The translations under genes were made by a program, and so were the position numbers. From contig CAZPGO010000032.1 of NCBI GenBank assembly GCA_964586355.1, positions 1 through 32,000 of the forward strand: a stretch of DNA of 32,000 nt, given 5' to 3'. Every line of letters starts with the position of its first letter. Position 1 is the first letter of the stretch. Positions 2,749 through 29,430 of this stretch are shown here, piece after piece. Source of the DNA: an uncultured archaeon. GTDB taxonomy: Archaea; Iainarchaeota; Iainarchaeia; Iainarchaeales; CSSED10-239. Below the pieces are notes generated by a model. The model searched no databases and was not told the origin of the DNA. It saw only the letters and a list, made by a program, of their open reading frames with translations.

Positions 2749-3219
2749 ATGAAAAATAAATTATATTTAGGGTCCTGTGTAGGCTCATTAGTGGGTCTAA
2801 TTTTCTTAATTAATTTGATTTTATTTAATAAGATCAAGATACACAACTGTAGTTGTAATAATGTGATTTCTTACAATTATTTTTTTATGTTTCTATTTTT
2901 ATCTATTGTTTTTTTAGTGTCTTTATTTTATTATCTGTTTAGCCTAAAGCTTACCAAAAAAGAAGATATTATAAAAAGCAATTTTAATTTACTTTATTCT
3001 ATTTTAGATAATGATGAAAAAAAACTTTTTGATCTCATACAATCCAAAGGAGGAAAAATCCCACAATTAGAGATCTCTAGAAAATTTGGCAAGATAAAAG
3101 GATATAGATTAATAGAAAAATTAATTTCTAAGAAAATAGTTACTAAAAAAAGAAATGGAATAAATAACACAATACTAATAAATAAAAATTTATTATATTC
3201 TCTAAACTATAAAAAATGA
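2749..3219 (+). CDS. Membrane-tethered winged-helix (MarR/TrmB-like) transcriptional regulator
   Basis: Two N-terminal hydrophobic helices (LGSCVGSLVGLIFLINLILF; FFMFLFLSIVFLVSLFYYLF) flank a short HNCSCNN loop. The C-terminal part (LFDLIQSKGGKIPQLEISRKFGKIKGYRLIEKLISKKIVTKKR) looks like a wHTH. Confidence 0.55.
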   Translation: MKNKLYLGSCVGSLVGLIFLINLILFNKIKIHNCSCNNVISYNYFFMFLFLSIVFLVSLFYYLFSLKLTKKEDIIKSNFNLLYSILDNDEKKLFDLIQSKGGKIPQLEISRKFGKIKGYRLIEKLISKKIVTKKRNGINNTILINKNLLYSLNYKK

Positions 3220-3225
3220 TCAATT

Positions 3226-4533
3226 ATGGATAAAATAAACAAAAATATTTTTTGGGTTTTAATTATTTTGATAATAACAAGTGGAGTTTTTTCTAATTTT
3301 CTATTTGCAGAAGACACAAACAAGGTTGATGTTTTCTTGTTTATTGGAGAAACCTGTCCACATTGTGCACAATTAGAAGACTATTTAGGCACTATAGCAG
3401 AGAAATATGATTTAAATCTAAATATCTATGGTGTATACTATAGTGAAGAAAATCAAAAACTTTTTGAAGAAATGGCTTTAGAGTATGGAATATCAATAGA
3501 AAGTGTGCCTACTATGTTTATTGGCAAGCATCATTTTATAGGTTATACTCCTTATATGAATGATGATATTATTTCAGCAATAAACGAGGTTAAGCAAAAT
3601 AACCCAAATCAGGAATCTCCTATTGATTCTCCTAAAGAAGATCTAGAAAACACAGATAAAGAAAATATCTCTAAAATTTCAACAACTGCTGTAAATCTTC
3701 CTGTGCTTGGAAATATTGATCTTTCGTCAGTATCTTTACCTTTATTAACCATTATCTTAGGTTTTTTAGATGGTTTTAATCCTTGTGCTTTTTTTGTGTT
3801 GTTGTTTTTATTATCTATGTTAGTTTATGCAAAAAATAAAAAAAGAATGTTAATTATTGGTCTGACCTTTGTTTTCTTCTCGGGTTTAATATATTTCTTA
3901 TTTATGTCTGCTTGGTTAAACTTTTTTATGGTAACTAAAAGTATAACTTTAATTACAACTATTGCTGGTTTAGTTGCATTAATAATTGGAATAATAAACA
4001 TAAAAGATTTTTTTGCTTTTAAAAAAGGAATTTCCTTATCGGTATCAGATAAACACAGAAATAATTTACTAGAAAGAATGAGAGGGCTTTTAAAAGCAGA
4101 GTCTTTACCTTCAATGTTGTTTGGAGCTGTTACTTTGGCTATTGCTGCAAACATGTATGAGTTGTTATGTACTGCTGGTTTTCCTATGGTTTTTACAAAG
4201 ATCTTAGTTTTAAATGAGCTTAATAAATTAAGCTATTATTTGTATTTGTTATTTTATAATATAGTTTATATTCTACCATTACTTACAATAGTGCTAATAT
4301 TTACATTTACCTTTGGTGCCAAAAAATTAACACAATCACAAGGAGAAGCACTAAAACTTATGTCAGGGATGATGATGTTTTCTTTAGGTGCTTTGTTAGT
4401 TTTTGCTCCTGGTTTATTAAACAATGTCCTTGCAGCAATTGGAACTATTGTTGTTGCACTCTGTTTGACTGGAATTATTTTATTATTAAAAAAAATCTCT
4501 AAAGAAAAAGAGGTGAAATCAGATGAAGTATAA
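3226..4533 (+). CDS. Signal-anchored thioredoxin/glutaredoxin-like domain (CPHC) fused to a DsbD/CcdA-type multi-pass thiol-disulfide membrane domain
   Basis: N-terminal hydrophobic anchor, then FIGETCPHCAQLEDYL. The polytopic part carries GFNPCAFFVL and a second membrane Cys (YELLCTAGFP), resembling the two-Cys DsbD/CcdA transmembrane family. Confidence 0.7.
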   Translation: MDKINKNIFWVLIILIITSGVFSNFLFAEDTNKVDVFLFIGETCPHCAQLEDYLGTIAEKYDLNLNIYGVYYSEENQKLFEEMALEYGISIESVPTMFIGKHHFIGYTPYMNDDIISAINEVKQNNPNQESPIDSPKEDLENTDKENISKISTTAVNLPVLGNIDLSSVSLPLLTIILGFLDGFNPCAFFVLLFLLSMLVYAKNKKRMLIIGLTFVFFSGLIYFLFMSAWLNFFMVTKSITLITTIAGLVALIIGIINIKDFFAFKKGISLSVSDKHRNNLLERMRGLLKAESLPSMLFGAVTLAIAANMYELLCTAGFPMVFTKILVLNELNKLSYYLYLLFYNIVYILPLLTIVLIFTFTFGAKKLTQSQGEALKLMSGMMMFSLGALLVFAPGLLNNVLAAIGTIVVALCLTGIILLLKKISKEKEVKSDEV

Positions 4534-4933
4534 AGAATACGATTTGCCAGATGATCTTTTATATAACAAAGACTCTAGTTGGATAAAGGTAAAAGATAAT
4601 ATTGCAACTATTGGAATTATTGAGCCAATAGCAAAAATACTAAAAGAATTTGTTTTTATGAAATTACCAGAAATAAAAAAAATAAACAAAGGAGAAATAT
4701 ATGTTTCTTTAGAAACCTTAAAGTGGTCAGGTCATTTAACAGCCCCAGTTTCTGGAGAAGTTATTGAGGTTAATGAAGGTTTGTTTGATGATCCTAGTAT
4801 TATAAATAAAGACCCATATAATTCTTGGATAGTTAAAATAAAAATAGATAATATTAAGGATATAGATTCTTTATTTAAAGCAAAAGATGTTGTTGATTGG
4901 TTAGATAAAACAATAAAAGGTGGAAAAATATGA
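4523..4933 (+). CDS. gcvH: Glycine-cleavage H-type lipoyl carrier protein
   Basis: 136 aa. ATIGIIEPIAK..FVFMKLPE..LETLKWSGHLTAPVSGEVIEVNEGL..DPSIINKDPYNSWIVKIK matches the GcvH pattern. The lipoyl-Lys position is kept in ETLKW. Overlaps the upstream stop by 11 nt. Confidence 0.85.
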   Translation: MKYKEYDLPDDLLYNKDSSWIKVKDNIATIGIIEPIAKILKEFVFMKLPEIKKINKGEIYVSLETLKWSGHLTAPVSGEVIEVNEGLFDDPSIINKDPYNSWIVKIKIDNIKDIDSLFKAKDVVDWLDKTIKGGKI

Positions 4934-5259
4934 GTAATACAGAAGAATTAAAAAAAATAGATGATCTCTTTATTTATTTAAAAAAAAACTCTCCAGAAAA
5001 GTATTCTGCATTTGGTAATATGATGCAAGAAATAGAGAAAGATGGATTAGTCTCTTCAAAAATAAAAGAAGCTGTTGCCTTAGGTATTGCTATTAAGTCT
5101 CAGTGTAAAGGATGTATAGCATTTCACACAAAAAAAGCTTTAGAAAAAGGATTTAGTAAAGAAGAGATTTTAGAGATTGCTTGGGTTGCTGTTCTTATGG
5201 GTGGTGGTCCTTCTTTGATATATTTGTCTTATGTTAAAGAGGCCTTAGAAGATGAATGA
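4930..5259 (+). CDS. Carboxymuconolactone decarboxylase (CMD)/AhpD-like CxxC protein
   Basis: 109 aa with the CKGCIAFH (CxxCxxxH) motif typical of AhpD-like alkylhydroperoxidase-core proteins. ATGA overlap with gcvH. Confidence 0.7.
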   Translation: MSNTEELKKIDDLFIYLKKNSPEKYSAFGNMMQEIEKDGLVSSKIKEAVALGIAIKSQCKGCIAFHTKKALEKGFSKEEILEIAWVAVLMGGGPSLIYLSYVKEALEDE

Positions 5260-6025
5260 ATCCAAAAACACTTGGAGATTATTAGGTTTAGAAAAGACAG
5301 AAGACTCTTTTATGAAAATGGCAACAGAAGAAGCCATAATGAATGCTGTTAGAAAAAAAGAGGTTTTGCCAACCTTAAGATTTTATTCATGGAATAGACC
5401 TGCAGTTACTGTGGGCTATTTTCAAGAAGCAAAGAAAGAACTTAATTTAGAGGACTGTGAAAAAGACAATATAGAGATCTTTAGAAGACTTACTGGTGGG
5501 GGTGCTGTTTATAAATCTCCAGAATATGAAATAAATTATAGTCTAATCATAAGAGAGGATGAAGAGATTATCCCTAAAGATGTAGAAAAATCTTATTCTT
5601 TAATCTGTGATGCTATTATTGAGGGTTTTAAAAATTTGAATTTAGATCTTAAATTTAAACCAATAAATGATATTACTCTTAATGGTAAAAAAGTTTCAGG
5701 AAATGCACAAACAAGAGTAAATAATGTTATTCTTCATCATGGCACTATTCTTTTAAAACCAGAAGTGGAAAAAATGTTTAAGTATCTAAAAATAGATGAT
5801 AAGAAACTTTTAGAAAAAAAAGTAAGTTCTGCAAAAGATTTAGTTACTGGTGTTTTAGAGTATAGATCTGTTTCTAAAGAAGAGATTATGTTATCAATAG
5901 TTAAAGGTTTTATGAAAACTTTTGAAGTTAATTTTGTTGAGTCTAATCTAACTAATTTAGAAAAAGAAGATGCTAATAAATTATATTCTAAATACTCTGA
6001 TTCTGATTTTGTTTTTTGGAGATAA
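5252..6025 (+). CDS. lplA: Lipoate-protein ligase A, catalytic domain only
   Basis: RFYSWNRPAVTVGYFQ, RRLTGGGAVY and GKKVSGNAQ motifs of the biotin/lipoate A/B ligase family. 8-nt overlap with the upstream gene. Confidence 0.85.
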   Translation: MNESKNTWRLLGLEKTEDSFMKMATEEAIMNAVRKKEVLPTLRFYSWNRPAVTVGYFQEAKKELNLEDCEKDNIEIFRRLTGGGAVYKSPEYEINYSLIIREDEEIIPKDVEKSYSLICDAIIEGFKNLNLDLKFKPINDITLNGKKVSGNAQTRVNNVILHHGTILLKPEVEKMFKYLKIDDKKLLEKKVSSAKDLVTGVLEYRSVSKEEIMLSIVKGFMKTFEVNFVESNLTNLEKEDANKLYSKYSDSDFVFWR

Positions 6026-6154: not shown

Positions 6155-6628
6155 ATGAAAAAACATACTATCTGGGACGAAATAAAAAGAATGCAAAGAA
6201 ATATGGATTCTTTGTTTAATGATTTTCTATATACAGAAAGTCCATATCTTTTAGATACCAACAACAGATCTAATGAAGTTTTAACACAAGAGAATTATAG
6301 AGAACCTATTTGTGATATAAAAGAAAATGATTCAAACTATACTTTGTCTTTAGAGATTCCTGGATCTAAAAAGGAAGACATTAAAGTAAATGTTATAGAT
6401 AACACTCTAGAAATAAAAGTAGAACACAAAAAAGAAGATAAGAAAGAGGATAAGGAAAAAGGATATTATAGCTATTCAAGTAACTATGTTGGGTATTATA
6501 GATCCTTTACTCTTCCAAAGAACACAGATTCAGAAAACATTGATGCAGAATACAAAAATGGAGTCTTGAATTTAAAGATTCCGAAAAAAGAAATAACAGG
6601 TTCTCAAAAATTAATAGAAATCAAATAG
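6155..6628 (+). CDS. hsp20: Small heat-shock protein, Hsp20/alpha-crystallin family
   Basis: Alpha-crystallin domain pattern: DIKENDSNYTLSLEIPGSKKEDIKVNV..LEIK..FTLP..D..NIDAEYKNGVLNLKIPKK. Confidence 0.9.
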   Translation: MKKHTIWDEIKRMQRNMDSLFNDFLYTESPYLLDTNNRSNEVLTQENYREPICDIKENDSNYTLSLEIPGSKKEDIKVNVIDNTLEIKVEHKKEDKKEDKEKGYYSYSSNYVGYYRSFTLPKNTDSENIDAEYKNGVLNLKIPKKEITGSQKLIEIK

Positions 6629-8196: not shown

Positions 8197-8217
8197 TTTT
8201 TGTTTCTTAAATATAAT

Positions 8218-8347
8218 GGTGTGTAGAAGGGATTAGAAAGGTTTGCATCTTTCTTTGACTAGTATGCTTTAAGCTAGGTCTTTGTTGTTCTGTTGAGGAG
8301 TGTTCGCTTCGGTAGTTCTTTTTGACTTTGCAACTTTTCTGCACACC
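8218..8347 (+). rRNA. Structured 130-nt RNA; candidate divergent 5S rRNA (alternative: unclassified ncRNA)
   Basis: A G+C-enriched island in an AT-rich spacer. A 12-bp terminal helix pairs 8218-8229 with 8336-8347 and is followed immediately by T8. A three-way junction carries two ~50-nt arms. Arm 1 pairs 8231-8236 with 8274-8280 (bulged A) and GCAU 8245-8248 with AUGC 8264-8267; its ..AUGCUUUAAGCUAGG.. resembles the conserved 5S ..GAAGUUAAGC.. segment in the equivalent position. Arm 2 (8284-8334) is a long irregular hairpin capped by C(UUCG)G at 8307-8312. I could not see the loop E AGUA/GAA motif. Confidence 0.5.
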
Positions 8348-8375
8348 TTTTTTTTGGTTATTTTATAACTACTTT

Positions 8376-8966
8376 TTATTTTAAATAAATATTTATTAAT
8401 TCTTTTATTTCAATAAATGTTAAATCAGGGCAAATTTTTTGTAAAAACTTAAAAGCAGGATCTTTAGCATTTAATTGTCTTAATTTAAAATTCCCAAATG
8501 TTTTTGCAACATTTGTTTTTTCTAATCTGTTTATTGCTGATTGTATTTTTTTTTTTAAGTTTTTATTTTCTTTATATTTATTTGCAAAATCAATTCTTTG
8601 TCTTGTTATTCTGTATTCTTGTCTATATGGATCTTGGTTTATTCTTTTAATAACCTCTTCTCTAACTTTTGGATCTTTAGTATACATTCCAAATAAGTAA
8701 TTTAAGTGAGCTGTTTTTAGTTCACTAATTGTAAGATCCCCAAAATGTTTTTTTATAAGTTCAATTACTTGTTTATTCTCTACAGATTTAAATTTAGATA
8801 TGTGCAAAAATTCTAAAACAGACATTTTTGGACTACTATTTATTGCGTCTCTTAATCTTCCAGCAACATTTCTTTGATCTTCAAGGACTATTTCAAAGTT
8901 TGGTATTCTTTTTGCTGGTCTTTTTTGAGTTGTAGTTGTTTTTGTTATTTTTTTTACTGGTTTCAT
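8376..8966 (-). CDS. Hypothetical basic protein (196 aa)
   Basis: Long ORF 43 nt downstream of the NIF3 gene on the same strand. Lys/Arg/Thr-rich N-terminus (KKITKTTTTQKRPAKR). I recognise no family. Confidence 0.55.
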   Translation of the reverse strand: MKPVKKITKTTTTQKRPAKRIPNFEIVLEDQRNVAGRLRDAINSSPKMSVLEFLHISKFKSVENKQVIELIKKHFGDLTISELKTAHLNYLFGMYTKDPKVREEVIKRINQDPYRQEYRITRQRIDFANKYKENKNLKKKIQSAINRLEKTNVAKTFGNFKLRQLNAKDPAFKFLQKICPDLTFIEIKELINIYLK

Positions 8967-9919: not shown

Positions 9920-10525
9920 ATGCCTGGCAAATATGAAAATATTGTTATGTTAGTTCATCCATTGTATGATCTTATCTATAATGATATTAATGATTTACTT
10001 AGTGAAAGAAAAGCAACCAGCTTAAATCTATTTATAAAAGACGCCTTAAAAGATCCAAAAATAAAACATCAATTAATAACAACAATAACAGAATATAGAA
10101 AAGAGCTTCTAAAATATCAAAAAGACCCTGCAACACTTCTGTTAATCTATTTGCCAACAGTAAAAAATACAGATCTAGATTTTATCTTTAAAAGGGTGTC
10201 TAAGGAACTTATAGTGGATCTAAAAAAAATATTTAAAGAAAGATTAATAATAAGCACTAGGTTTTCAGTAGATAATCTAATCTCAGAAATACCTCTAAAA
10301 AATTTTTCTAAGAAAATACAATTAAAGGCCTTTGGAGAATATAAAAATATTTGTGTAACAACCTATCTAGATTCTCTTGCAAATCAATTAGAGCAAAGAG
10401 GATTTAAAACAAGATCTAAAATACTTGCAAGAAAATCCTACTCTTCTTCTAATGGTAGATTTCCTGGGTTAGATCATAAGGCAAGGTTTAGATCTTTAAG
10501 AAGGTTTGTAAAAAGACCATTGTGA
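9920..10525 (+). CDS. Hypothetical protein (201 aa) with a basic C-terminal tail
   Basis: ORF with an upstream gaggat SD-like site. No confident family. The segment AFGEYKNICVTTYLDSLANQLEQRGF faintly recalls cysteine-hydrolase/isochorismatase-like folds, but this is weak. Confidence 0.5.
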   Translation: MPGKYENIVMLVHPLYDLIYNDINDLLSERKATSLNLFIKDALKDPKIKHQLITTITEYRKELLKYQKDPATLLLIYLPTVKNTDLDFIFKRVSKELIVDLKKIFKERLIISTRFSVDNLISEIPLKNFSKKIQLKAFGEYKNICVTTYLDSLANQLEQRGFKTRSKILARKSYSSSNGRFPGLDHKARFRSLRRFVKRPL

Positions 10526-13267: not shown

Positions 13268-13909
13268 ATGAGAAAAAGTAATTTACCATTAATTAGAAGA
13301 AAAATGGCTGCCTTTGGAGATATAGCAATAAGGGGAACAAATAAATTACATGAAAAAACAAATGGAAAAACATATAACGGATTTCATAATCATTTTATTT
13401 TTTCAAAAAAGTTATTAGATACAAATACATCAACAAGAGATCTAATCTCCAGAATTGGAAATGCAGTTAATGATGCTATGCACTATGCATTTAAGTATAG
13501 TGGCTTTCAATACAAATTAGTTGGAAACAAATTCAGTTATAAATATAATTCTAAAGATAAACCAACAGTTGTCTTTGTGATGTCAAAAGAAGGAATTGGT
13601 TTTGATGCTAATCTTCTAAAAACCACCTTGAGTTCAAAATTTGAAATCCCAGGATCAGAAAATATTCTTGGACTGACATATTCAGGGGGCATATTAGCAG
13701 ATAAAAAAAATGTTTTTTCTGTAACTATTGATAAAAAAGATTTAATAGATTTAAATTCTGCATTAAGTGAACATTTTAAAAAATTAGAAGCAAATAACCA
13801 GAAAATATATGGTAAAGAGATAAATGCTGATTATTTTTTAACAAATTTTTTAGTTAGAAGAATAATTTCTAAAGCTCTGGTGAAATATAGAAAAAGAGAA
13901 AAAAATTAA
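13268..13909 (+). CDS. Hypothetical soluble protein (213 aa)
   Basis: ORF 24 nt downstream of the ATPase gene on the same strand. I recognise no motif. Confidence 0.5.
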   Translation: MRKSNLPLIRRKMAAFGDIAIRGTNKLHEKTNGKTYNGFHNHFIFSKKLLDTNTSTRDLISRIGNAVNDAMHYAFKYSGFQYKLVGNKFSYKYNSKDKPTVVFVMSKEGIGFDANLLKTTLSSKFEIPGSENILGLTYSGGILADKKNVFSVTIDKKDLIDLNSALSEHFKKLEANNQKIYGKEINADYFLTNFLVRRIISKALVKYRKREKN

Positions 13910-15481: not shown

Positions 15482-15820
15482 ATGAAAGATAATTTTGTTG
15501 TTTTAATAATTATGATTTTAGTGATTACTGTAATTGGTGAGATATTATTTATAATTCCTCACAACACAGAAAACACAAACAAAGTGAGTGTGGTATATCA
15601 ACCAATGCAATGTGAAGTAGAACCTTGGCAAGATGAAAACTTAAGTCTGGACATTTATTTTTCAAATAAAAATATAACTATAAGTGAATTTAAGAAAATA
15701 GAAAGATCAGAAATATTCTGTCAAGCTTGCGAGGTTTGCCCAAAAAGTTATTATTATACTATGAATGTATATGCCAAAGACCTAAGTCATTTAAAAAAAA
15801 TAGGCTTTAGCCAAATATAA
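15482..15820 (+). CDS. Small N-terminally anchored Cys-containing protein (112 aa), unknown function
   Basis: A single N-terminal hydrophobic helix, then CEVEPW and CQACEVCP. Lies 17 nt upstream of the FKBP gene. Confidence 0.45.
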   Translation: MKDNFVVLIIMILVITVIGEILFIIPHNTENTNKVSVVYQPMQCEVEPWQDENLSLDIYFSNKNITISEFKKIERSEIFCQACEVCPKSYYYTMNVYAKDLSHLKKIGFSQI

Positions 15821-21289: not shown

Positions 21290-21376
21290 AATCCATGTAT
21301 ATATATATTAACTATACAAAGTTAATTGTTGATCTTATGATTAACATAAGTAAAAACACAAAAACCCCCTTTTTTC

Positions 21377-21397
21377 GCCCTTTTTTAAAAAAAGGGC
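21377..21397 (+). promoter_or_regulatory. Perfect palindrome gcccttttttaaaaaaagggc, 27 nt upstream of ATG 21424
   Basis: GCCC T6 / A7 GGGC, read directly. Could be an operator or a 5'-UTR hairpin. Confidence 0.3.
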
Positions 21398-21423
21398 AAT
21401 ATTTATTTAAAAAAGGAATAATT

Positions 21424-22350
21424 ATGAAAAAAATTAGATCTTTAATTTTTATTTTTTTAGCAATCATTATGTTATCTATATTTGTAAAAAATGTTTTTGC
21501 TAGTGAGATCAACTATACCTTCACAGAAACAGTTGTTCTTAAGGATAAGCCTGTTTTTTATGATCTAACCCTGCATAATCCTTCTAATGAATCTCAATTG
21601 TACCAAATTAAGGCATATACCACGCCATTTAAAGTAACATTAATACCAGAAAAAATAAGACTAGCACCAAGAGAAACAGGAACAATCTCTTTTATGTTTG
21701 AGCCTCTCTTGGACCAATTAGAGTCTGTTTATGCCTCTAATTTTAAAATAACTTCTAATAATGAAAATAAAACAATATATTTTAATATTAATCAAAAATC
21801 TAACAAAATTTGTCCATTAACAATAACTATAGATGATATTATTAATGATGAAAATTTATCATTTATTTTAAGAGTAGAAAATAATAGTACTAGAGGGTAT
21901 AATCTAGAATTAATCTCTTTAGAAAATATTAATGATTTTAATAGATCTGTACTAAGATCTAACAGAGAAGAAATAATTGAGAAAACATATGTTTTTTCTG
22001 ATTTTAATAGAGATTTAGAAAGAACAATTCTTACCTATAAATGCAACAATATAGAAAACACAAAAGAAATAGAAATACCTAAACAAGAGAAAGAAGAAAC
22101 ACAAACAGAAGTTACAGGAGTAACAGGTTTTGTTGGTTTTTTAGATCTTGGTTTTGTAAATGTTTTTTTAGACTCATTTGCTGCAATTTTTTTGGGTTTT
22201 GTAAATGTTTTTTATAACTCTTTAATCTCTATTGATTTCTTAGTAATTTTAAATTCCACAATAACTCATATAATTTTAATAGTTATTTTAGTATTTTTAA
22301 TTTTATCTTTTACAACTAGATATATAAAATATCTCTATCTAAAAAAATAA
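21424..22350 (+). CDS. Secreted/membrane-anchored surface protein with Ig-like (CARDB-like) repeats and a hydrophobic C-terminus
   Basis: I prefer ATG 21424 (MKKIRSLIFIFLAIIMLSIFVKNVFA, signal-peptide-like) over the track start at 21295. Two beta-sandwich-like segments, an E/T-rich spacer, VTGVTGF, hydrophobic helices, then a basic end. Confidence 0.55.
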   Translation: MKKIRSLIFIFLAIIMLSIFVKNVFASEINYTFTETVVLKDKPVFYDLTLHNPSNESQLYQIKAYTTPFKVTLIPEKIRLAPRETGTISFMFEPLLDQLESVYASNFKITSNNENKTIYFNINQKSNKICPLTITIDDIINDENLSFILRVENNSTRGYNLELISLENINDFNRSVLRSNREEIIEKTYVFSDFNRDLERTILTYKCNNIENTKEIEIPKQEKEETQTEVTGVTGFVGFLDLGFVNVFLDSFAAIFLGFVNVFYNSLISIDFLVILNSTITHIILIVILVFLILSFTTRYIKYLYLKK

Positions 22351-22366
22351 AAAAATGTGATATATT

Positions 22367-24205
22367 ATGAAAAAAATGAATCTTGTAATAGGAATATTAA
22401 TAATATTCTCTTTTATAAATATTGGATTGGTTTCTGCTAATGCAATTAATAACATAGATCTAACCTTTGATAAAGAGTATTATTCTGTAATGGAAGATAC
22501 TAGTCTTAGAGTTGGATTTACAATAAAAAATAGAAACAATTTTGATGTTAAGTTATTTGCATACACTGAGTGTGATAATGATGATATTGTTTGTGATTAT
22601 AGTAAAACATTTGATATTTCCAAAAACTCAGAAAAAACAGGTTCTTTTTATGTTACTGGAATAGATGATTACAGTTCATCAGTAAGAATATATTTAAGAG
22701 GGATGGACACACAAACCTCTGGTCAAGAAATAGATTTTTATACAGATATAGATGTTGTAAGGGATTATGACGATTCAGATTTTGAAATTGATCTTAGAAA
22801 CCATTCTTTATGTATTGGTGAATCTAATGAACTAATATTAGAGATAGATAATTATAATCAAAATGACTTTTATGATCTAAAACTGGAAAGTAGTAAACTA
22901 ATCTTTGATCAAGTTACTAGTAATCCTGTATATTTAGGAAACGATCTAAAAGAAATAAAATATCTAGTAACTGTTCCAAAAGAGGTTTTACCAGGAACAA
23001 GTTATGATGTTATTTTAAGAATAGAAAATGATAGAGTTTCAGTAACTAATGAATTCTCTGTATCAGTTACTCACTGCCCCAAACCTGCTGATTTTAGTGT
23101 TAGTGGAGCTAGTGTGGTTTCATATTATTTAAATAAAGATGATTCAAAAACAGAAACCTATACAATATACAATAATTCTTCACATAAGAAAAAAATCTTT
23201 GTTGCAGAAACTCAAGAAGATAATGAGATCTTTGTAGAGATTGGTAATAGAGAGATAGAGATCTTACCAAGATCCAGTAAAACAGTAGAAATAACTTTTA
23301 ATGTTCCTAAAGAAATAGACTCTGGAACAAAGGAAATAGATCTATCTTTTTTTGATGGTTTGCATACTGTTTCTAAAAAAGTAAGATTACAGATAAATCC
23401 AGAATATAAGATAAGCACAAGAATACTACAAGGAAATGAAGTCACTTTACCAATAGGGCGATTTGTAGATGTAATGTTAGTTATTGAAAATAATGGAGAT
23501 CTTTATGAGACCTTTGATATTTTAACAAATGTTTCAGGGGATATTACTCTAAGAACAAGAGAAAACACTATAACAGTTTTGCCAAAAAGCAGTTATATTT
23601 TACCATTAACAGTTTCTGCAGGAAACCATATAGAAGAAGGGGACCTTGCAAGAATGGATGTTAGAGTTGTTGGTAGAAATAGTGATTATTTAAGAAATTT
23701 TTCAGTAAATTTTAATGTTGTAAGAAGTAAGGGTTCTTTACCTATTGAGTTTTTATCTTTTCCTAAAGAGGTTGCAATTGATGCAAATACTACTGTTAAT
23801 TTCCAAATAGAACTTAAAAACTTTAGTAATGAAGAGATAATTATTGATAGAATAGAAATAAATAGCCTTCCTCAAAACATAAATTACAGTACTCCACAAA
23901 ATATTTCTTTGGCATCTCAAGAGAGAAAAATTATAGATGGCTCTTTATATATTGGCAATCTACAATTACAACCAGGTGATGAAATATTAGCAAGAGTTGC
24001 TTTTATTGGTAGAGATGGAACTGTACTAGAAAAGAAATTACTTTTAAAAACACCAACAGATGTAAAGACAGAAGAACCTAAAAAATCAAAAGTTACTGGG
24101 TTTTTAAATCTAAGTAATTCTATTTTCTTAGGTTTGATTGTAATTTCAATATCAATAATCTTAATGTTTGCTTTAGGTGTTTTTAAGAAAAAAAATAGAT
24201 TTTAA
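22367..24205 (+). CDS. Surface protein: signal peptide, about five CARDB/Ig-like repeats, C-terminal TM anchor
   Basis: MKKMNLVIGILIIFSFINIGLVSANA signal. Roughly 105-aa repeats follow an 'x-IxNxg..-..I.l.P.SSK.v...v.vP' pattern. C-terminus: KSKVTGFLNLSNSIFLGLIVISISIILMFALGVFKKKNRF. Confidence 0.6.
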   Translation: MKKMNLVIGILIIFSFINIGLVSANAINNIDLTFDKEYYSVMEDTSLRVGFTIKNRNNFDVKLFAYTECDNDDIVCDYSKTFDISKNSEKTGSFYVTGIDDYSSSVRIYLRGMDTQTSGQEIDFYTDIDVVRDYDDSDFEIDLRNHSLCIGESNELILEIDNYNQNDFYDLKLESSKLIFDQVTSNPVYLGNDLKEIKYLVTVPKEVLPGTSYDVILRIENDRVSVTNEFSVSVTHCPKPADFSVSGASVVSYYLNKDDSKTETYTIYNNSSHKKKIFVAETQEDNEIFVEIGNREIEILPRSSKTVEITFNVPKEIDSGTKEIDLSFFDGLHTVSKKVRLQINPEYKISTRILQGNEVTLPIGRFVDVMLVIENNGDLYETFDILTNVSGDITLRTRENTITVLPKSSYILPLTVSAGNHIEEGDLARMDVRVVGRNSDYLRNFSVNFNVVRSKGSLPIEFLSFPKEVAIDANTTVNFQIELKNFSNEEIIIDRIEINSLPQNINYSTPQNISLASQERKIIDGSLYIGNLQLQPGDEILARVAFIGRDGTVLEKKLLLKTPTDVKTEEPKKSKVTGFLNLSNSIFLGLIVISISIILMFALGVFKKKNRF

Positions 24206-25839
24206 TCCTTAAGATTATCAAAAACATTTTTTTCTTTTTCTATATTTTTCATTTTATTTTCTATTAGTTTCATTGTTTGGTTCATTTTTTCTATATTTTT
24301 ATCAATTACTGCAATAAACTGCTCTTTAAATTTATCAATCTCATTTATTTTGTCTTGAGCAATTTGTATTTTTTTAATTTCTGATTCTACTTTTTCTTTA
24401 ATTTCATCTACTGTTCTTATTTTTCCTTTAACCTCTTGAGTTATTGCTGACTCATATATGTTTAGTGCCCCTGAGATCTTTTCATCAATACTTTCTAATA
24501 ACATCTTTTTAAAATCCACTAATTCATCTATCTTTTTTGAAATGATTTCTGGATCTGTTTTTGAAACTATGGTATTTTTTAGATTGTTTAGTTCCAAAAA
24601 TTGTTTGTCTATGTCGTTTTTATAAGCATCTTTTGCTTTTACTAAAAACTCTCTTTTAACTCCTTCAAATCTATCCTCATATCTGTTTGCTAGTTTTTGT
24701 TTAAAGGACTCTAGTTCAGACAACTTATCATAAAGTTCTTTTGGATTGATTTGGCTAGAGATTTTTTCCTTAAAGTCATTAAGTTTTTTAACCTCAGTAT
24801 TTATTGCACTTTGTGTGTTTTTTATTAGTCCTTGTGTTATTCTTGATTGAAGTGCTAAGATGTCATTAATTTCTTTTAGTTTTACATTTATTTTTGTGGT
24901 AGTGGTTACTGTTAGTTTATTAATATTATCCTGTATTATTTTACTATTTCCTTCCAGTTGTTCACCAAGTTCATTAACATTATTTATGGTCTTTTGTAAT
25001 TCTGATTTGCCACTATTTATTTCTTCAATTTTTTTATTTAGTTTTGCTTGTTCTATTTTAATCATTGCAAGTTGTTTTGTTATTTGTACATTTGCTGCTT
25101 GTTCTTGTTGACTAATCATATCTGTTAATTTAGAGATTAATAGTTGTTTGTTTGTTTCTTGAATTTTTTTGTATTTTATTAACTCTTGATCTATTTTTGA
25201 TTTTAAATATTCTTCTATTTTTTCTTGTTTAGACTCTATCTCAGAAAGTTTAGTGTTTATTGTGGTTGCAAGACCAGTTTCCCAAATATTTTGATCTTCT
25301 TTAATCTCTATTGGTGCTATTGCTGGCTTTGTTATTTTTTTTGTATTTTCTTTTTTATCTAGTTCTTCTATTTTTTCATTAAATTTATCATAAACATTTT
25401 CAGAGATTAGATCATCTTTTTCTTCTTTGTCTTTTCTGTTAAGTTGATCTAAATCTAGATCTTTTGTAATATCTGGAAGTTCTTCTTCTGTTTCTTCTTT
25501 TTTAGAATCTTCTTTTTTTTCATCACTAAGTTCTTTAACCCCTTGTTTTAGATCAGAGATTTCATCAGAATCAGAGTTAAAAAAATCAGAAGGAATTTCT
25601 TCTTTTTTAAAAGCTGATGCTACAGTTACTTTTTTTTCTTCTGGATTAGAAACAGAGATCTCTTTACTTCCATTTTGATCTGATTTCAATGGTTCTTTTT
25701 TAGAATCAGAATTAAGTAAATCATTACAATCTTTTTCAGAGAGACCCATTTTTAGCAAATTCTCTTTTATTTCTTTATCAGACATTCCTAAACTTTTTAG
25801 TTTTTTAATATTTTCAATAATTCTTGGGTCAGGAATCAT
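24202..25839 (-). CDS. Acidic coiled-coil protein (545 aa) with a small N-terminal helical module
   Basis: N-terminal IENIKKLKSLGMSDKEIKENLLKMGLSEKDCNDLL (UBA/Pex14-N-like three-helix look). Then an acidic low-complexity region and ~350 aa of heptad-like K/E/I/L/N/Q repeats. Starts 7 nt downstream of adk. Confidence 0.6.
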   Translation of the reverse strand: MIPDPRIIENIKKLKSLGMSDKEIKENLLKMGLSEKDCNDLLNSDSKKEPLKSDQNGSKEISVSNPEEKKVTVASAFKKEEIPSDFFNSDSDEISDLKQGVKELSDEKKEDSKKEETEEELPDITKDLDLDQLNRKDKEEKDDLISENVYDKFNEKIEELDKKENTKKITKPAIAPIEIKEDQNIWETGLATTINTKLSEIESKQEKIEEYLKSKIDQELIKYKKIQETNKQLLISKLTDMISQQEQAANVQITKQLAMIKIEQAKLNKKIEEINSGKSELQKTINNVNELGEQLEGNSKIIQDNINKLTVTTTTKINVKLKEINDILALQSRITQGLIKNTQSAINTEVKKLNDFKEKISSQINPKELYDKLSELESFKQKLANRYEDRFEGVKREFLVKAKDAYKNDIDKQFLELNNLKNTIVSKTDPEIISKKIDELVDFKKMLLESIDEKISGALNIYESAITQEVKGKIRTVDEIKEKVESEIKKIQIAQDKINEIDKFKEQFIAVIDKNIEKMNQTMKLIENKMKNIEKEKNVFDNLKD

Positions 25840-27984: not shown

Positions 27985-29430
27985 ATGTATACTAGATGGT
28001 ATTTAGATGTAATCTTTAAATATATAGGTCAATTGATCTATTATAGTAGTTATACTTTATTGATACCTGTTTTTTTATCTTTAATATTTAAGGAACCATT
28101 TGCAGTAACTGTTGCATATTTTGTGATTTTTTTAACTGTTTTTTTTATTGGTCTAATTTTATATAAAACCATTTCTTTAAATAAAAGACCATTTGTAAAT
28201 CTAAACTTTGTTCATTATCTTGCAATTATTTGTGGATTTTGGATTTTATTTTCTTTTTTTTCTGCTCTTCCATTAGTAATTGTAGGACAGTTTGCTATAA
28301 TAGATTCTATTTTTGAAACCATGTCTATGCTTACCACAACAGGATTAAGTGTTCTTCCAATATTACCAACACTTGCAAGTTTAATTTTTTGGAGATCTAT
28401 TTTAGCATGGATTGGTGGAATTGGTTTGATATTGTTGGCTTATTTTGGTGTTTTAAACTCTCACTCCAGTTTTAATAAGTTAATGAGAGCTGAAGGAAGA
28501 GAGCTTATAAGACCAAATGTTAAAAACACCATTAAGCATTTGTGGATGATCTATTCAATATTAACTATTTTTGGAATTATTCTTTTAATTGTTTTTGGAA
28601 TGAATCTATTTAATTCCATAAACTACACAATGGCTGCAATCTCAACTACTGGTCTGCAGATTGGTATAAACGATGCTTTGTTGTTAGAAAATCCTTTTAT
28701 TCAGTTGTCTTTAGTATTAATAATGGTGATTGGAGCAACATCTTTTTTAACACATTATTTTGCTTTAAGAAAAAAGTCAATTGTTGAATATTTTAAGGAT
28801 AATCAGTTTATTGCTTTTTTATCTTTAGTAGGTGTTTCTATATTTGTTTTTTTAGTAACTATTGGCTCTAAACACTCATGGACAAAGTTATTGTTTTTAT
28901 CAGTATCTGCAATATCTGGGGGCGGATTTAAGATATTTGGTGTTGAAGAGATTGTGGTTATTCCAGCAATTTCTCTTTTAATGATCATATTTTTAATGTT
29001 TATTGGTGGATCTACTAATTCTACAAGTGGTGGCATAAAGATGCATAGACTTGTTCTTTTATTTAAAACAATTTATTGGAAAATAAAGGAGATAATTCTT
29101 CCAGAAAATGCACATTTTTCAAGAAAATATAATGATGAGCAATATGATGATGAAAAGATTTCTTCTATATATTTTTTTTTGTTTATTTATTTTATATTTA
29201 TCTTAATAGGTACATTTGTTTTAGTTGCATACAATAACCCACTTCAAGAAAGCTTTTTTGAAGTAATCTCTGCTCAAAGTAATGTGGGTTTATCTAGTGG
29301 AGTTACTACTAGTGCATTACCAGTAATTCCAAAAGTGATGTTAATAATTAATATGTGGATTGGAAGATTAGAGATTATCCCTTTTTTGGGGTTAGTTGGT
29401 CTTTTGTTTCAAAAAAAAATATATTTATAA
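27985..29430 (+). CDS. trkH: K+ uptake membrane subunit, TrkH/KtrB family
   Basis: Four pore-loop glycine motifs (TTTGLSV, STTGLQ, SGGGFK, SNVGLSSG) and GGIKMHRL. Confidence 0.85.
   Translation: MYTRWYLDVIFKYIGQLIYYSSYTLLIPVFLSLIFKEPFAVTVAYFVIFLTVFFIGLILYKTISLNKRPFVNLNFVHYLAIICGFWILFSFFSALPLVIVGQFAIIDSIFETMSMLTTTGLSVLPILPTLASLIFWRSILAWIGGIGLILLAYFGVLNSHSSFNKLMRAEGRELIRPNVKNTIKHLWMIYSILTIFGIILLIVFGMNLFNSINYTMAAISTTGLQIGINDALLLENPFIQLSLVLIMVIGATSFLTHYFALRKKSIVEYFKDNQFIAFLSLVGVSIFVFLVTIGSKHSWTKLLFLSVSAISGGGFKIFGVEEIVVIPAISLLMIIFLMFIGGSTNSTSGGIKMHRLVLLFKTIYWKIKEIILPENAHFSRKYNDEQYDDEKISSIYFFLFIYFIFILIGTFVLVAYNNPLQESFFEVISAQSNVGLSSGVTTSALPVIPKVMLIINMWIGRLEIIPFLGLVGLLFQKKIYL

Follow-up and report, generated by a model that had tools for sequence, protein, structure and literature searches.

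A candidate lipoyl-protein-dependent transmembrane thiol relay encoded by a compact archaeal operon

Could a lipoyl-carrier protein work outside glycine cleavage, as the electron donor of a thiol conduit in the membrane? This question is raised by an operon in a stretch of 32,000 nt (hereafter the window) from an uncultured archaeon (Archaea; Iainarchaeota; CSSED10-239; assembly GCA_964586355.1, contig CAZPGO010000032.1, positions 1-32,000). Five genes encode in turn a membrane-anchored winged helix-turn-helix (wHTH) protein, a fusion of a thioredoxin domain to a transmembrane (TM) domain, here termed Trx-TM, a GcvH-like lipoyl carrier (GcvH*), an AhpD-type carboxymuconolactone decarboxylase (CMD) protein and a ligase of the LplA family. 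With a probability of roughly 0.55, we propose that these genes provide a transmembrane thiol relay dependent on a lipoyl protein, in which electrons would pass from a flavoprotein to lipoyl-GcvH*, then to a pair of membrane Cys residues and at last to an external CPHC site. We infer every electron-transfer step, together with its direction and the external substrates, from sequences, gene neighbourhoods and structural models. No published description of the system was found in full-text literature searches.

The operon and its lipoyl carrier

All five open reading frames (ORFs) lie on the + strand and, as claimed in the original prediction, which was made from the window alone, they are packed with start/stop overlaps. 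The wHTH protein (2749-3219; 156 aa) is followed by Trx-TM (3226-4533; 435 aa), and the gap between the stop codon of the former (TGA, 3217-3219) and the ATG of the latter at 3226 is 6 nt as read from the sequence; the ATG of GcvH* (4523-4933; 136 aa) overlaps by 11 nt with the stop codon of Trx-TM (TAA, 4531-4533). A GGTGA motif is present at 4512-4516, ahead of the GcvH* start. The CMD gene (4930-5259; 109 aa) is joined to GcvH* by an ATGA overlap at 4930-4933, and the gene of the single-domain LplA-family lipoate/octanoate-protein ligase (5252-6025; 257 aa), starting with the ATG at 5252, overlaps the CMD stop codon (TGA, 5257-5259) by 8 nt. The G+C content of the window is ~26%, and the closest relatives of its proteins are found in Woesearchaeota and other DPANN archaea.

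The lipoyl carrier was originally named as GcvH, and this identity stands as far as the fold (PF01597, E = 2e-29) and the lipoyl-lysine K67 (nt 4721-4723) are concerned, the latter being invariant and aligned with the canonical GcvH lipoyl lysine. However, judged by its sequence, GcvH* is a distinct GcvH-like subfamily, not a bona fide H protein. That is, it scores below the NCBIfam GcvH cut-offs (106.4 vs 117 for PRK01202 and 86 vs 115.85 for TIGR00527), and its clade comprises ~59 clusters at identities of at least 48%, followed by a gap to ordinary GcvH at no more than 45%. The clade signature is LE(T/A)L-K67-WSGHL (LETL-K-WSGHL in the window copy), compared with E(S/A)V-K-A(A/V)SD in canonical GcvH, and GcvH* contains no cysteines. 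Both NCBI and JGI annotate it as 'glycine cleavage system protein H'.

The occurrence of a lipoyl carrier and its ligase without P, T or L proteins, which had drawn attention to the locus, holds for the whole window, where no GcvP, GcvT, Lpd, E2 or 2-oxoacid dehydrogenase is encoded; LipA, LplB and the pyridine-nucleotide disulfide oxidoreductase (PNDR) described below were not found in it either. A 481-aa ORF at 27985-29430, considered as an Lpd candidate, was rejected, being TrkH. Among the ~60 operon loci examined, genes for P, T, L or E2 proteins occur in none. The ligase has the LplA catalytic domain (PF21948, E = 7e-50) with the catalytic-lysine motif GKKVSGNA at residues 145-152 (nt 5684-5707), and it remains below the cut-off of every NCBIfam LplA model; the C-terminal accessory domain is absent, and the window has no LplB ORF.

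The CMD protein matches PF02627 (E = 2.4e-14) and, with a score of 38.3, exceeds the cut-off of 27.8 of the AhpD core model TIGR00778, while its best NCBIfam matches are arsenic-linked AhpD-like proteins. It has no TM segment and is cytoplasmic. The residues C59, C62 and H66 of its motif C59-K-G-C62-x-x-x-H66 (nt 5104-5127) are 100% conserved in 19 operon-linked CMD homologs.

The wHTH protein has hydrophobic segments at residues 5-29 and 38-69, which form two N-terminal TM helices, and a C-terminal DUF7343-like wHTH domain. Its own Pfam match to DUF7343 is weak (E = 7e-3, below the cut-off), and the homologs in loci L001 and L145 do carry this Pfam call. Trx-TM is immediately preceded by such a homolog in 12 of the first archaeal loci, as it is in many loci from metagenomes, and the wHTH protein is presumed to regulate the operon. 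Cys36 (nt 2854-2856), its sole invariant cysteine (100% in 27 sequences), lies between the two TM helices and may act as an extracytoplasmic thiol sensor that controls the operon.

Is the gene order conserved in relatives? This check had been set beforehand, and its outcome favours the operon as a unit. The same five-gene order, with unrelated flanks, is present in contigs from Woesearchaeota and other DPANN archaea (such as L001 and L002), and in the DPANN loci of an 86-locus survey Trx-TM is followed directly by a GcvH-like gene. Chance would fall far short of explaining the arrangement, since dozens of unrelated contigs that differ in their flanks show this order again. Of 43 non-identical GcvH*-clade loci that were drawn from a metagenome scan and have upstream sequence, 41 have Trx-TM immediately upstream (same strand, end -120 to +150 nt of the GcvH* start). 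The gap between the two genes in 63 pairs has a median of -8 nt, with 36 pairs overlapping and 23 within 30 nt; note that ORF starts in the scripted surveys were taken as the first ATG/GTG/TTG after a stop, and the overlaps are possibly slightly overestimated. The pairing of Trx-TM with a following GcvH* is near-obligate, and it spans DPANN archaea and Patescibacteria, for example on a 698-kb contig (L088) and on a 1.3-Mb Moranbacteria contig (L146). Of the GcvH*-clade loci, only L133/L134 (6989-7363) and L123 lack a Trx-TM gene just upstream; in L133, CMD and a CoADR-like oxidoreductase are instead encoded ~1.6 kb downstream. Two Trx-TM paralogs lie within 6 kb of each other on some DPANN contigs (761-1990 and 6890-7867 in L019; 3138-4400 and 6896-8569 in L049), and GcvH* follows just one of the two.

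The window and its nearest relatives (L001, L002, L008 and L092-L096) have the minimal form of the operon, with wHTH, Trx-TM, GcvH*, CMD and LplA. The long version begins with a membrane wHTH or ArsR gene, followed by Trx-TM, GcvH*, one of a small CPHC Trx, CMD or DUF169 gene, PNDR, LipA, LplA and LplB. Among 23 GcvH* loci with at least 4.5 kb of downstream sequence, LplA was found in 21, PNDR in 15, LplB in 14, LipA in 13, the small Trx and CMD in 9 each, and DUF169 in 3. The first gene after GcvH* encodes an exported CPHC Trx lipoprotein in 13 loci, CMD in 12, DUF169 in 6 and the flavoprotein in 5. The AhpD-like protein had originally been given the place of an obligatory step of the relay, and this part of the prediction did not survive, since the slot is also filled by the Trx lipoprotein, DUF169 or the flavoprotein. 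The small Trx proteins share the CPHC site and should be exported partners, because they have signal peptides with lipobox-like ends (..SGC, ..AGC, ..TGC); these same features led us to reject them as cytoplasmic shuttles replacing AhpD.

The flavoprotein of the fuller operons is of the single-Cys CoADR/Nox type, with the motif EYSPCALPYV and CoADR as its best NCBIfam match, on which grounds the 461-aa and 445-aa oxidoreductases were rejected as dihydrolipoamide dehydrogenases. Its clade is confined to Candidate Phyla Radiation (CPR) and DPANN genomes under generic names only (JGI uses 'NADH oxidase'). When the linkage was viewed from the flavoprotein side, both members looked up, one in a Woesearchaeota and one in a Moranbacteria genome, were located within the operon. 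It is plausible that this flavoprotein disulfide reductase is the electron source for the relay. The radical-SAM genes of the operons were also considered as LipS1/LipS2 and rejected, since they encode classical LipA above the NCBIfam cut-offs. Some operon variants insert DGC, TusA, a TsuA/YeeE-type transporter, two DsrE genes and DsrH.

The Trx-TM protein and its membrane domain

The AlphaFold model of Trx-TM (pLDDT 74.5) is composed of an N-terminal helix, a Trx fold at residues 34-125 (nt 3325-3600), a disordered acidic linker and seven helices. The Trx fold was weakly detected in the Pfam search (E about 3e-3), the PDB profile matches of the domain are glutaredoxins, the MJ0307 thioredoxin (1fo5) and the N-terminus of DsbA, and Foldseek with the whole model returned thioredoxins only, with a probability of 1.00, and nothing on the membrane part. 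Together, the model, the profile matches and Foldseek make a clear case for a thioredoxin fold, predicted to be of the small Grx/MJ0307 type without the helical insert of DsbA. The CPHC active site occupies residues 44-47 (nt 3355-3366) and the cis-Pro loop is V94-P95; C44, P45, H46, C47 and P95 are invariant in an alignment of 28 sequences.

The domain is acidic (25 D+E against 8 K+R) and lies behind an N-terminal hydrophobic signal/anchor helix, and a K/R-rich loop at residues 264-293 is predicted to be cytoplasmic. The positive-inside rule predicts an external Trx domain and a C-terminus on the inside, in agreement with the extracytoplasmic CPHC domain proposed at the outset.

The membrane domain (residues 171-434, nt 3736-4527) appears in the AlphaFold helix map as a 3+3(+1) helix bundle with kinks in TM1 at N185-P-C187 and in TM4 between C315 and P320. 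TM1 contains the motif D182-x-x-N185-P186-C187 (Cys at nt 3784-3786) and TM4 the motif N309-x-Y-E312-x-x-C315-T-x-G-x-P320 (Cys at nt 4168-4170). D182, N185, P186, C187, N309, E312, C315 and P320 are invariant in the 28 sequences, and among 133 representatives of 50% clusters the conservation of the motif residues (D182 to P320) is 96-99%, with 99% for both Cys. Two three-helix repeats, with one conserved Cys each in TM1 and TM4, are what is expected of a DsbD/CcdA protein.

Then, is the membrane domain really related to DsbD/CcdA? It does not match any Pfam DsbD model (PF02683 and PF13386, which we take to be the accessions of the DsbD family), and a sequence-profile search of PDB with this domain gave no match. 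A profile of CcdA/DsbD/DsbD_2 was built from E. coli DsbD and CcdA-like ORFs in the surveyed loci, and hhalign was used to compare it with the 133-sequence profile of the membrane domain. The two were aligned over 243 columns with a probability of 82% (P = 1e-5) and with both catalytic Cys aligned, while the reversed control gave P = 0.4. Earlier shallow profiles had given a weak result (P = 0.02), and the match became convincing once the profile was widened to the 133 representatives. From these profile comparisons we conclude that the membrane domain is probably an unannotated, remote branch of the DsbD/CcdA superfamily. The label 'DsbD/CcdA-like' in the original prediction was consequently borne out as remote homology, but not as membership of the Pfam DsbD families, and no non-redox transporter is recognisable in the domain.

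More than 6,000 homologs of Trx-TM were collected, in none of which does the membrane part receive a Pfam call. The family falls into 3,872 clusters at 50% identity, many of whose members stop after helix 6, and a profile scan of species-representative genomes detected a homolog in at least 582 species. A neighbor-joining tree of Trx-TM domains showed two groups and gave no resolution on the monophyly of the GcvH-linked members. Fused C-terminal domains were noticed in two members, a VKOR domain in P0054 and a ZnuA metal-binding domain in P0228, and P0347 has a weak match to SfLAP (PF11139); judging from these cases, some branches may have oxidative or metal-linked roles.

Bacterial homologs and neighbouring genes

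Among 64 bacterial Trx-TM loci, which include Nitrospirota, Thermodesulfovibrionia, Geobacter, Thiocapsa and Omnitrophota, GcvH, CMD or LplA was found within 7 kb of Trx-TM in none. A thioredoxin-type ArsC is encoded directly after Trx-TM in 10-11 of the 64 (164-167 bits vs a cut-off of 174), and ArsR, ArsP_1 permeases and CcdA are encoded near bacterial Trx-TM genes. For example, in Nitrospirota/Thermodesulfovibrionales a stand-alone Trx-TM is followed by the ArsC-like gene, sometimes overlapping it, often with ArsR upstream (L022, L028, L032, L034, L038, L044, L053, L076 and L085, at about 8200-8700; L073, 3994-4428). A radical-SAM gene follows Trx-TM, with an overlap, in Omnitrophota and in Elusimicrobia-like loci (L040, 4978-5970; L054, 8328-9284; L066, 8262-9233), and the L040 copy is BioB, above the cut-off. 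Counting the LipA of the archaeal operons, Trx-TM has links to two radical-SAM enzymes that insert sulfur.

In both archaea and bacteria, Trx-TM operons are adjoined by a recurring cassette of ArsR, Thioredoxin_3 (a small MJ0307-like Trx) and ArsP_1, sometimes with DsbD_2/CcdA or DGC (L091, 1686-4635; L145, 10330-12301; L099, 11394-13166; L075, 6218-10810). An SBF-family (PF01758) gene is located upstream in L088. On plasmid pPg_03 of the cyanobacterium Pseudanabaena galeata (NZ_CP112877.1; L144, 5394-7302), a distant Trx-TM homolog with 28% identity, annotated as 'glutaredoxin family protein', comes after a DsrE-family gene, with cysK and katG nearby.

As for the neighbours of the operon in the window, an Hsp20 gene (6155-6628, + strand; PF00011, E = 6e-23) begins 129 nt downstream and is probably outside the unit. 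The stress island originally suggested by this gene finds no echo beyond the closest relative, as Hsp20 adjoins the operon in only one of more than 140 related loci, that of an 88%-identical relative (L092). Three genes upstream of the operon (11-2582) could form an Fe-S or cofactor-handling trio. One encodes a 282-aa protein in which a KEDLKV/KEDSKA tandem-repeat linker connects two Nitro_FeMo-Co (NifX/NifB-like) domains, and it is followed by overlapping genes of two P-loop ATPases of the MinD/ParA type, both of which contain an inserted 4Fe-4S ferredoxin domain. Sizeable ORFs without a Pfam match are located at 9920-10525, 13268-13909, 15482-15820, 21295-22350 and 24202-25839, and the sole match of a 612-aa ORF at 22367-24205 is Fn3-like and sub-threshold.

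The proposed relay and its rivals

The relay that we favour would operate as follows. LplA, with or without LplB and LipA, would attach lipoate to K67 of GcvH*, a dedicated H-protein paralog outside glycine cleavage; the lipoate would be scavenged in the present archaeon, because the window is without LipA. The lipoyl group would be reduced by the CoADR-like NAD(P)H flavoprotein, which is encoded in the fuller operons and not in the window. The dihydrolipoyl arm would then pass two electrons to C187/C315 in TM1/TM4, either directly or via the AhpD-type CxxC protein, and the membrane Cys pair would reduce the fused external CPHC domain and, elsewhere, also the exported CPHC lipoprotein. The external domain may in turn keep the thiols of surface or exported proteins reduced, or repair oxidative, sulfane-sulfur or arsenic damage. 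The relay does not require the AhpD-like protein, since its slot after GcvH* is often filled by other genes, and this protein may be an optional cytoplasmic branch, acting either as an adaptor or as a reductase of peroxides or disulfides that depends on lipoyl groups.

This relay is the best-supported reading of the operon, in view of the Trx-TM/GcvH* pairing, the dedicated lipoylation and flavoprotein genes, the homology of the conduit, the topology and the low potential of lipoamide. DsbD-type conduits have reported potentials above that of lipoamide, so that the reductive direction should be downhill. The E0' of lipoamide is -0.29 V (PMC6067878). The relay as originally outlined is thus retained in its conserved unit, topology and conduit homology, but not in its AhpD step or its link to Hsp20. 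In DPANN/CPR, genomic linkage points to lipoyl-GcvH* rather than thioredoxin as the donor of the membrane domain.

Several observations weigh against the relay. D182 and E312, which stand beside the Cys residues, are 96-98% conserved in the 133 representatives, and an acidic residue beside the Cys is typical of DsbD-related cation transporters and not of CcdA. No Pfam match to the membrane domain at E <= 10 was common to 13 TM-only sequences, and in Foldseek the best TM-score of the TM-only model, 0.43/0.49 with the CcdA NMR structure 5VKV, was not significant (E = 2.5). Bacterial Trx-TM orthologs that are 44-51% identical have no adjacent GcvH, and therefore the lipoyl donor is not intrinsic to the Trx-TM family. 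The flavoprotein is a single-Cys CoADR/Nox-type enzyme, not a dihydrolipoamide dehydrogenase, and is absent from the window. CPHC is the motif of DsbA too, which, like the VKOR fusion in one family member, hints at an oxidising role. Finally, the ars-like and DsrE/TusA/TsuA contexts fit ligand exchange as well as electron transfer, although they are also compatible with a general role in the repair of thiol stress.

Could the electrons flow in the opposite direction? The operon would then serve quinone-independent disulfide-bond formation, in which the external CPHC domain oxidises exported proteins and electrons move inward via the membrane Cys to oxidised lipoyl-GcvH*, which would then return to the oxidised state by giving electrons to NAD+ or O2 through the CoADR/Nox-like flavoprotein, or to peroxides via the AhpD-like protein. 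The DsbA active-site motif, with N-terminal segments of DsbA among the best profile matches, is in keeping with this, as are the name 'NADH oxidase' given by JGI and the usual direction of lipoyl enzymes, from dihydrolipoyl to NAD+. To our knowledge, DPANN and CPR generally lack quinones, so DsbB/VKOR could not work there, and the CcdA or DsbD_2 genes that adjoin Trx-TM in several loci would complement an oxidative Trx-TM and not duplicate it. However, electron transfer from protein dithiols to lipoamide (-0.29 V) would be uphill, the Trx domain has the small Grx/MJ0307-type fold without the DsbA insert, and MJ0307, with the same CPHC, is strongly reducing. A VKOR fusion would moreover be redundant with an oxidative conduit, and all homologous CcdA/DsbD proteins that we know of are reductive conduits. 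We hold the inward flow to be unlikely. A different cargo is also unlikely, if somewhat easier to credit: As(III), another soft metal(loid) or sulfane sulfur might be exchanged, in the manner of MerP/MerT, among the CPHC site, the membrane Cys/Asp/Glu site and a cytoplasmic dithiol, with dihydrolipoyl-GcvH* as the chelator or carrier and the AhpD-like protein, DUF169, DGC and DsrE/TusA as further acceptors. Dihydrolipoate is a classic chelator of As(III), and many of the contexts described above are of the kind that such an exchange would lead one to expect. They include the ArsC-like genes after bacterial Trx-TM with ArsR, ArsP_1 and CcdA nearby, the ArsR-Thioredoxin_3-ArsP_1(-DsbD_2) cassettes flanking the archaeal operon, the SBF-family gene in L088, TusA-TsuA-DsrE-DsrE-DsrH and DGC within long variants, DsrE before the distant plasmid homolog and the arsenic-linked best matches of the CMD protein; the conserved D182 and E312, the ZnuA fusion and the weak SfLAP match point the same way. 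Yet the sole detectable homologs of the membrane domain are the CcdA/DsbD electron conduits, the NAD(P)H flavoprotein and the full lipoylation pathway argue for redox turnover, and the external domains contain a cis-Pro loop, as thiol-disulfide oxidoreductases typically do. Genes of the ars or sulfur-relay kind are absent from the window and its closest relatives, and neither an obvious energy source for export nor a detoxifying enzyme for import is at hand; CcdA-type conduits, in addition, accompany sulfur enzymes as reductive repair systems (SoxV/SoxW).

A further account, in which GcvH and LplA are remnants of glycine cleavage or lipoate salvage, or GcvH relays lipoyl groups to E2 as in Bacillus, and both are chance neighbours of an unrelated membrane thioredoxin, is hardly credible. 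It would agree with the NCBI/JGI annotation, and Firmicute GcvH is able to relay lipoyl groups (Cao et al. 2018, PMC6067878). However, Trx-TM lies directly upstream in 41/43 loci, overlapping or nearly abutting, across DPANN and CPR with unrelated flanks, GcvH* scores below the GcvH equivalog cut-offs, stands apart as a clade and has a different motif around its lipoyl lysine, and P, T, L and E2 genes are missing from all of the ~60 loci. Chance adjacency of a housekeeping GcvH/LplA is very unlikely.

How, then, does the proposed relay compare with known systems? With DsbD/CcdA, including ScsB and SoxV, it shares two three-helix inverted repeats with one essential Cys each in TM1 and TM4, a TM1 whose N-terminus is outside, and an external CxxC acceptor with a thioredoxin fold, which is either fused (DsbD) or a separate lipoprotein, as in CcdA-ResA, CcdA-Etrx-MsrAB and SoxV-SoxW. 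Trx-TM differs in lacking a match to the Pfam DsbD models, in its motifs D-x-x-NPC and E-x-x-C-T-x-G-x-P and in an extra seventh helix, and its linked cytoplasmic partners in DPANN/CPR are a lipoylated H-protein paralog and a CoADR-like flavoprotein instead of thioredoxin and thioredoxin reductase. The AhpC/AhpD/DlaT/Lpd system of M. tuberculosis also combines a protein-bound dihydrolipoyl group with an AhpD-type CxxCxxxH protein and employs lipoate outside 2-oxoacid and glycine metabolism; M. tuberculosis AhpD is reportedly reduced by a dihydrolipoyl protein, a result credited to Bryk et al. in 2002. Here, however, neither AhpC (no peroxiredoxin) nor Lpd nor E2 is present in the window or related operons, the carrier is GcvH-like, and the AhpD-like protein is dispensable in most operon versions, the invariant partner being the membrane conduit. 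The layout of an external CxxC, an intramembrane Cys pair and a cytoplasmic dithiol acceptor is shared with MerP/MerT by analogy only, as the folds and families are different and no MerA-like sink is present.

Two further systems pair a GcvH-like protein with a ligase of its own. In the LbpA system, with sLpl(AB), LipS1-LipS2, sHdr, DsrE3 and TusA (PMC6067878; Tanabe et al. 2023, PMC10332631), a GcvH-like carrier is accompanied by its own single-domain LplA-like ligase, and some of the operon variants described here also share TusA, DsrE/DsrH, a YeeE/TsuA-type transporter and an ArsR-type regulator. LbpA has two conserved cysteines (N- and C-terminal) that are absent from GcvH, some archaeal LbpAs being exceptions (PMC6067878). 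In contrast, GcvH* is without these two cysteines, sHdr/Hdr-like genes occur in no annotated locus, sulfur insertion is assigned to classical LipA and not to LipS1/LipS2, and the constant partner is Trx-TM, not sHdr. The Firmicute GcvH-L/LplA2/SirTM/macrodomain operon (PMC4518038, PMC12440151) likewise has a second GcvH paralog with its own lipoate ligase and a link to redox stress, but it involves a different subfamily, other partners and other lineages; the window operon and related loci contain no sirtuin or macrodomain, and no evidence of ADP-ribosylation was found.

What would such a relay mean for these organisms? Lipoate is known to serve the 2-oxoacid dehydrogenases, glycine cleavage and, as recognised recently, sHdr sulfur oxidation, and the relay would add redox chemistry outside the cell. 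Genome-reduced DPANN/CPR symbionts generally lack those dehydrogenase complexes, as far as we know, and the relay would explain why they keep lipoylation genes. We put forward, as a tentative generalisation that is somewhat short of an even chance, that external thiol-disulfide homeostasis in DPANN/CPR may be run by a lipoyl-protein couple (the H-protein paralog and a CoADR-like 'lipoyl-protein reductase') and not by thioredoxin/thioredoxin reductase, with the swinging arm directly reducing the buried Cys pair of a new DsbD-superfamily protein. If this is true, the relay would be the first across a membrane to depend on lipoate for electron transfer, and these reduced genomes may have no other use for lipoate. 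A large unannotated membrane family, with ~3,900 clusters at 50% identity and members in at least 582 species, thereby gains a testable functional setting, and the parts of the operon are all small and expressible. Surface thiol chemistry could matter when cells attach to the host or have to tolerate anoxic habitats that are sulfidic or rich in arsenic, and the operon suggests that reducing power reaches the surface of these cells by way of lipoic acid and not thioredoxin.

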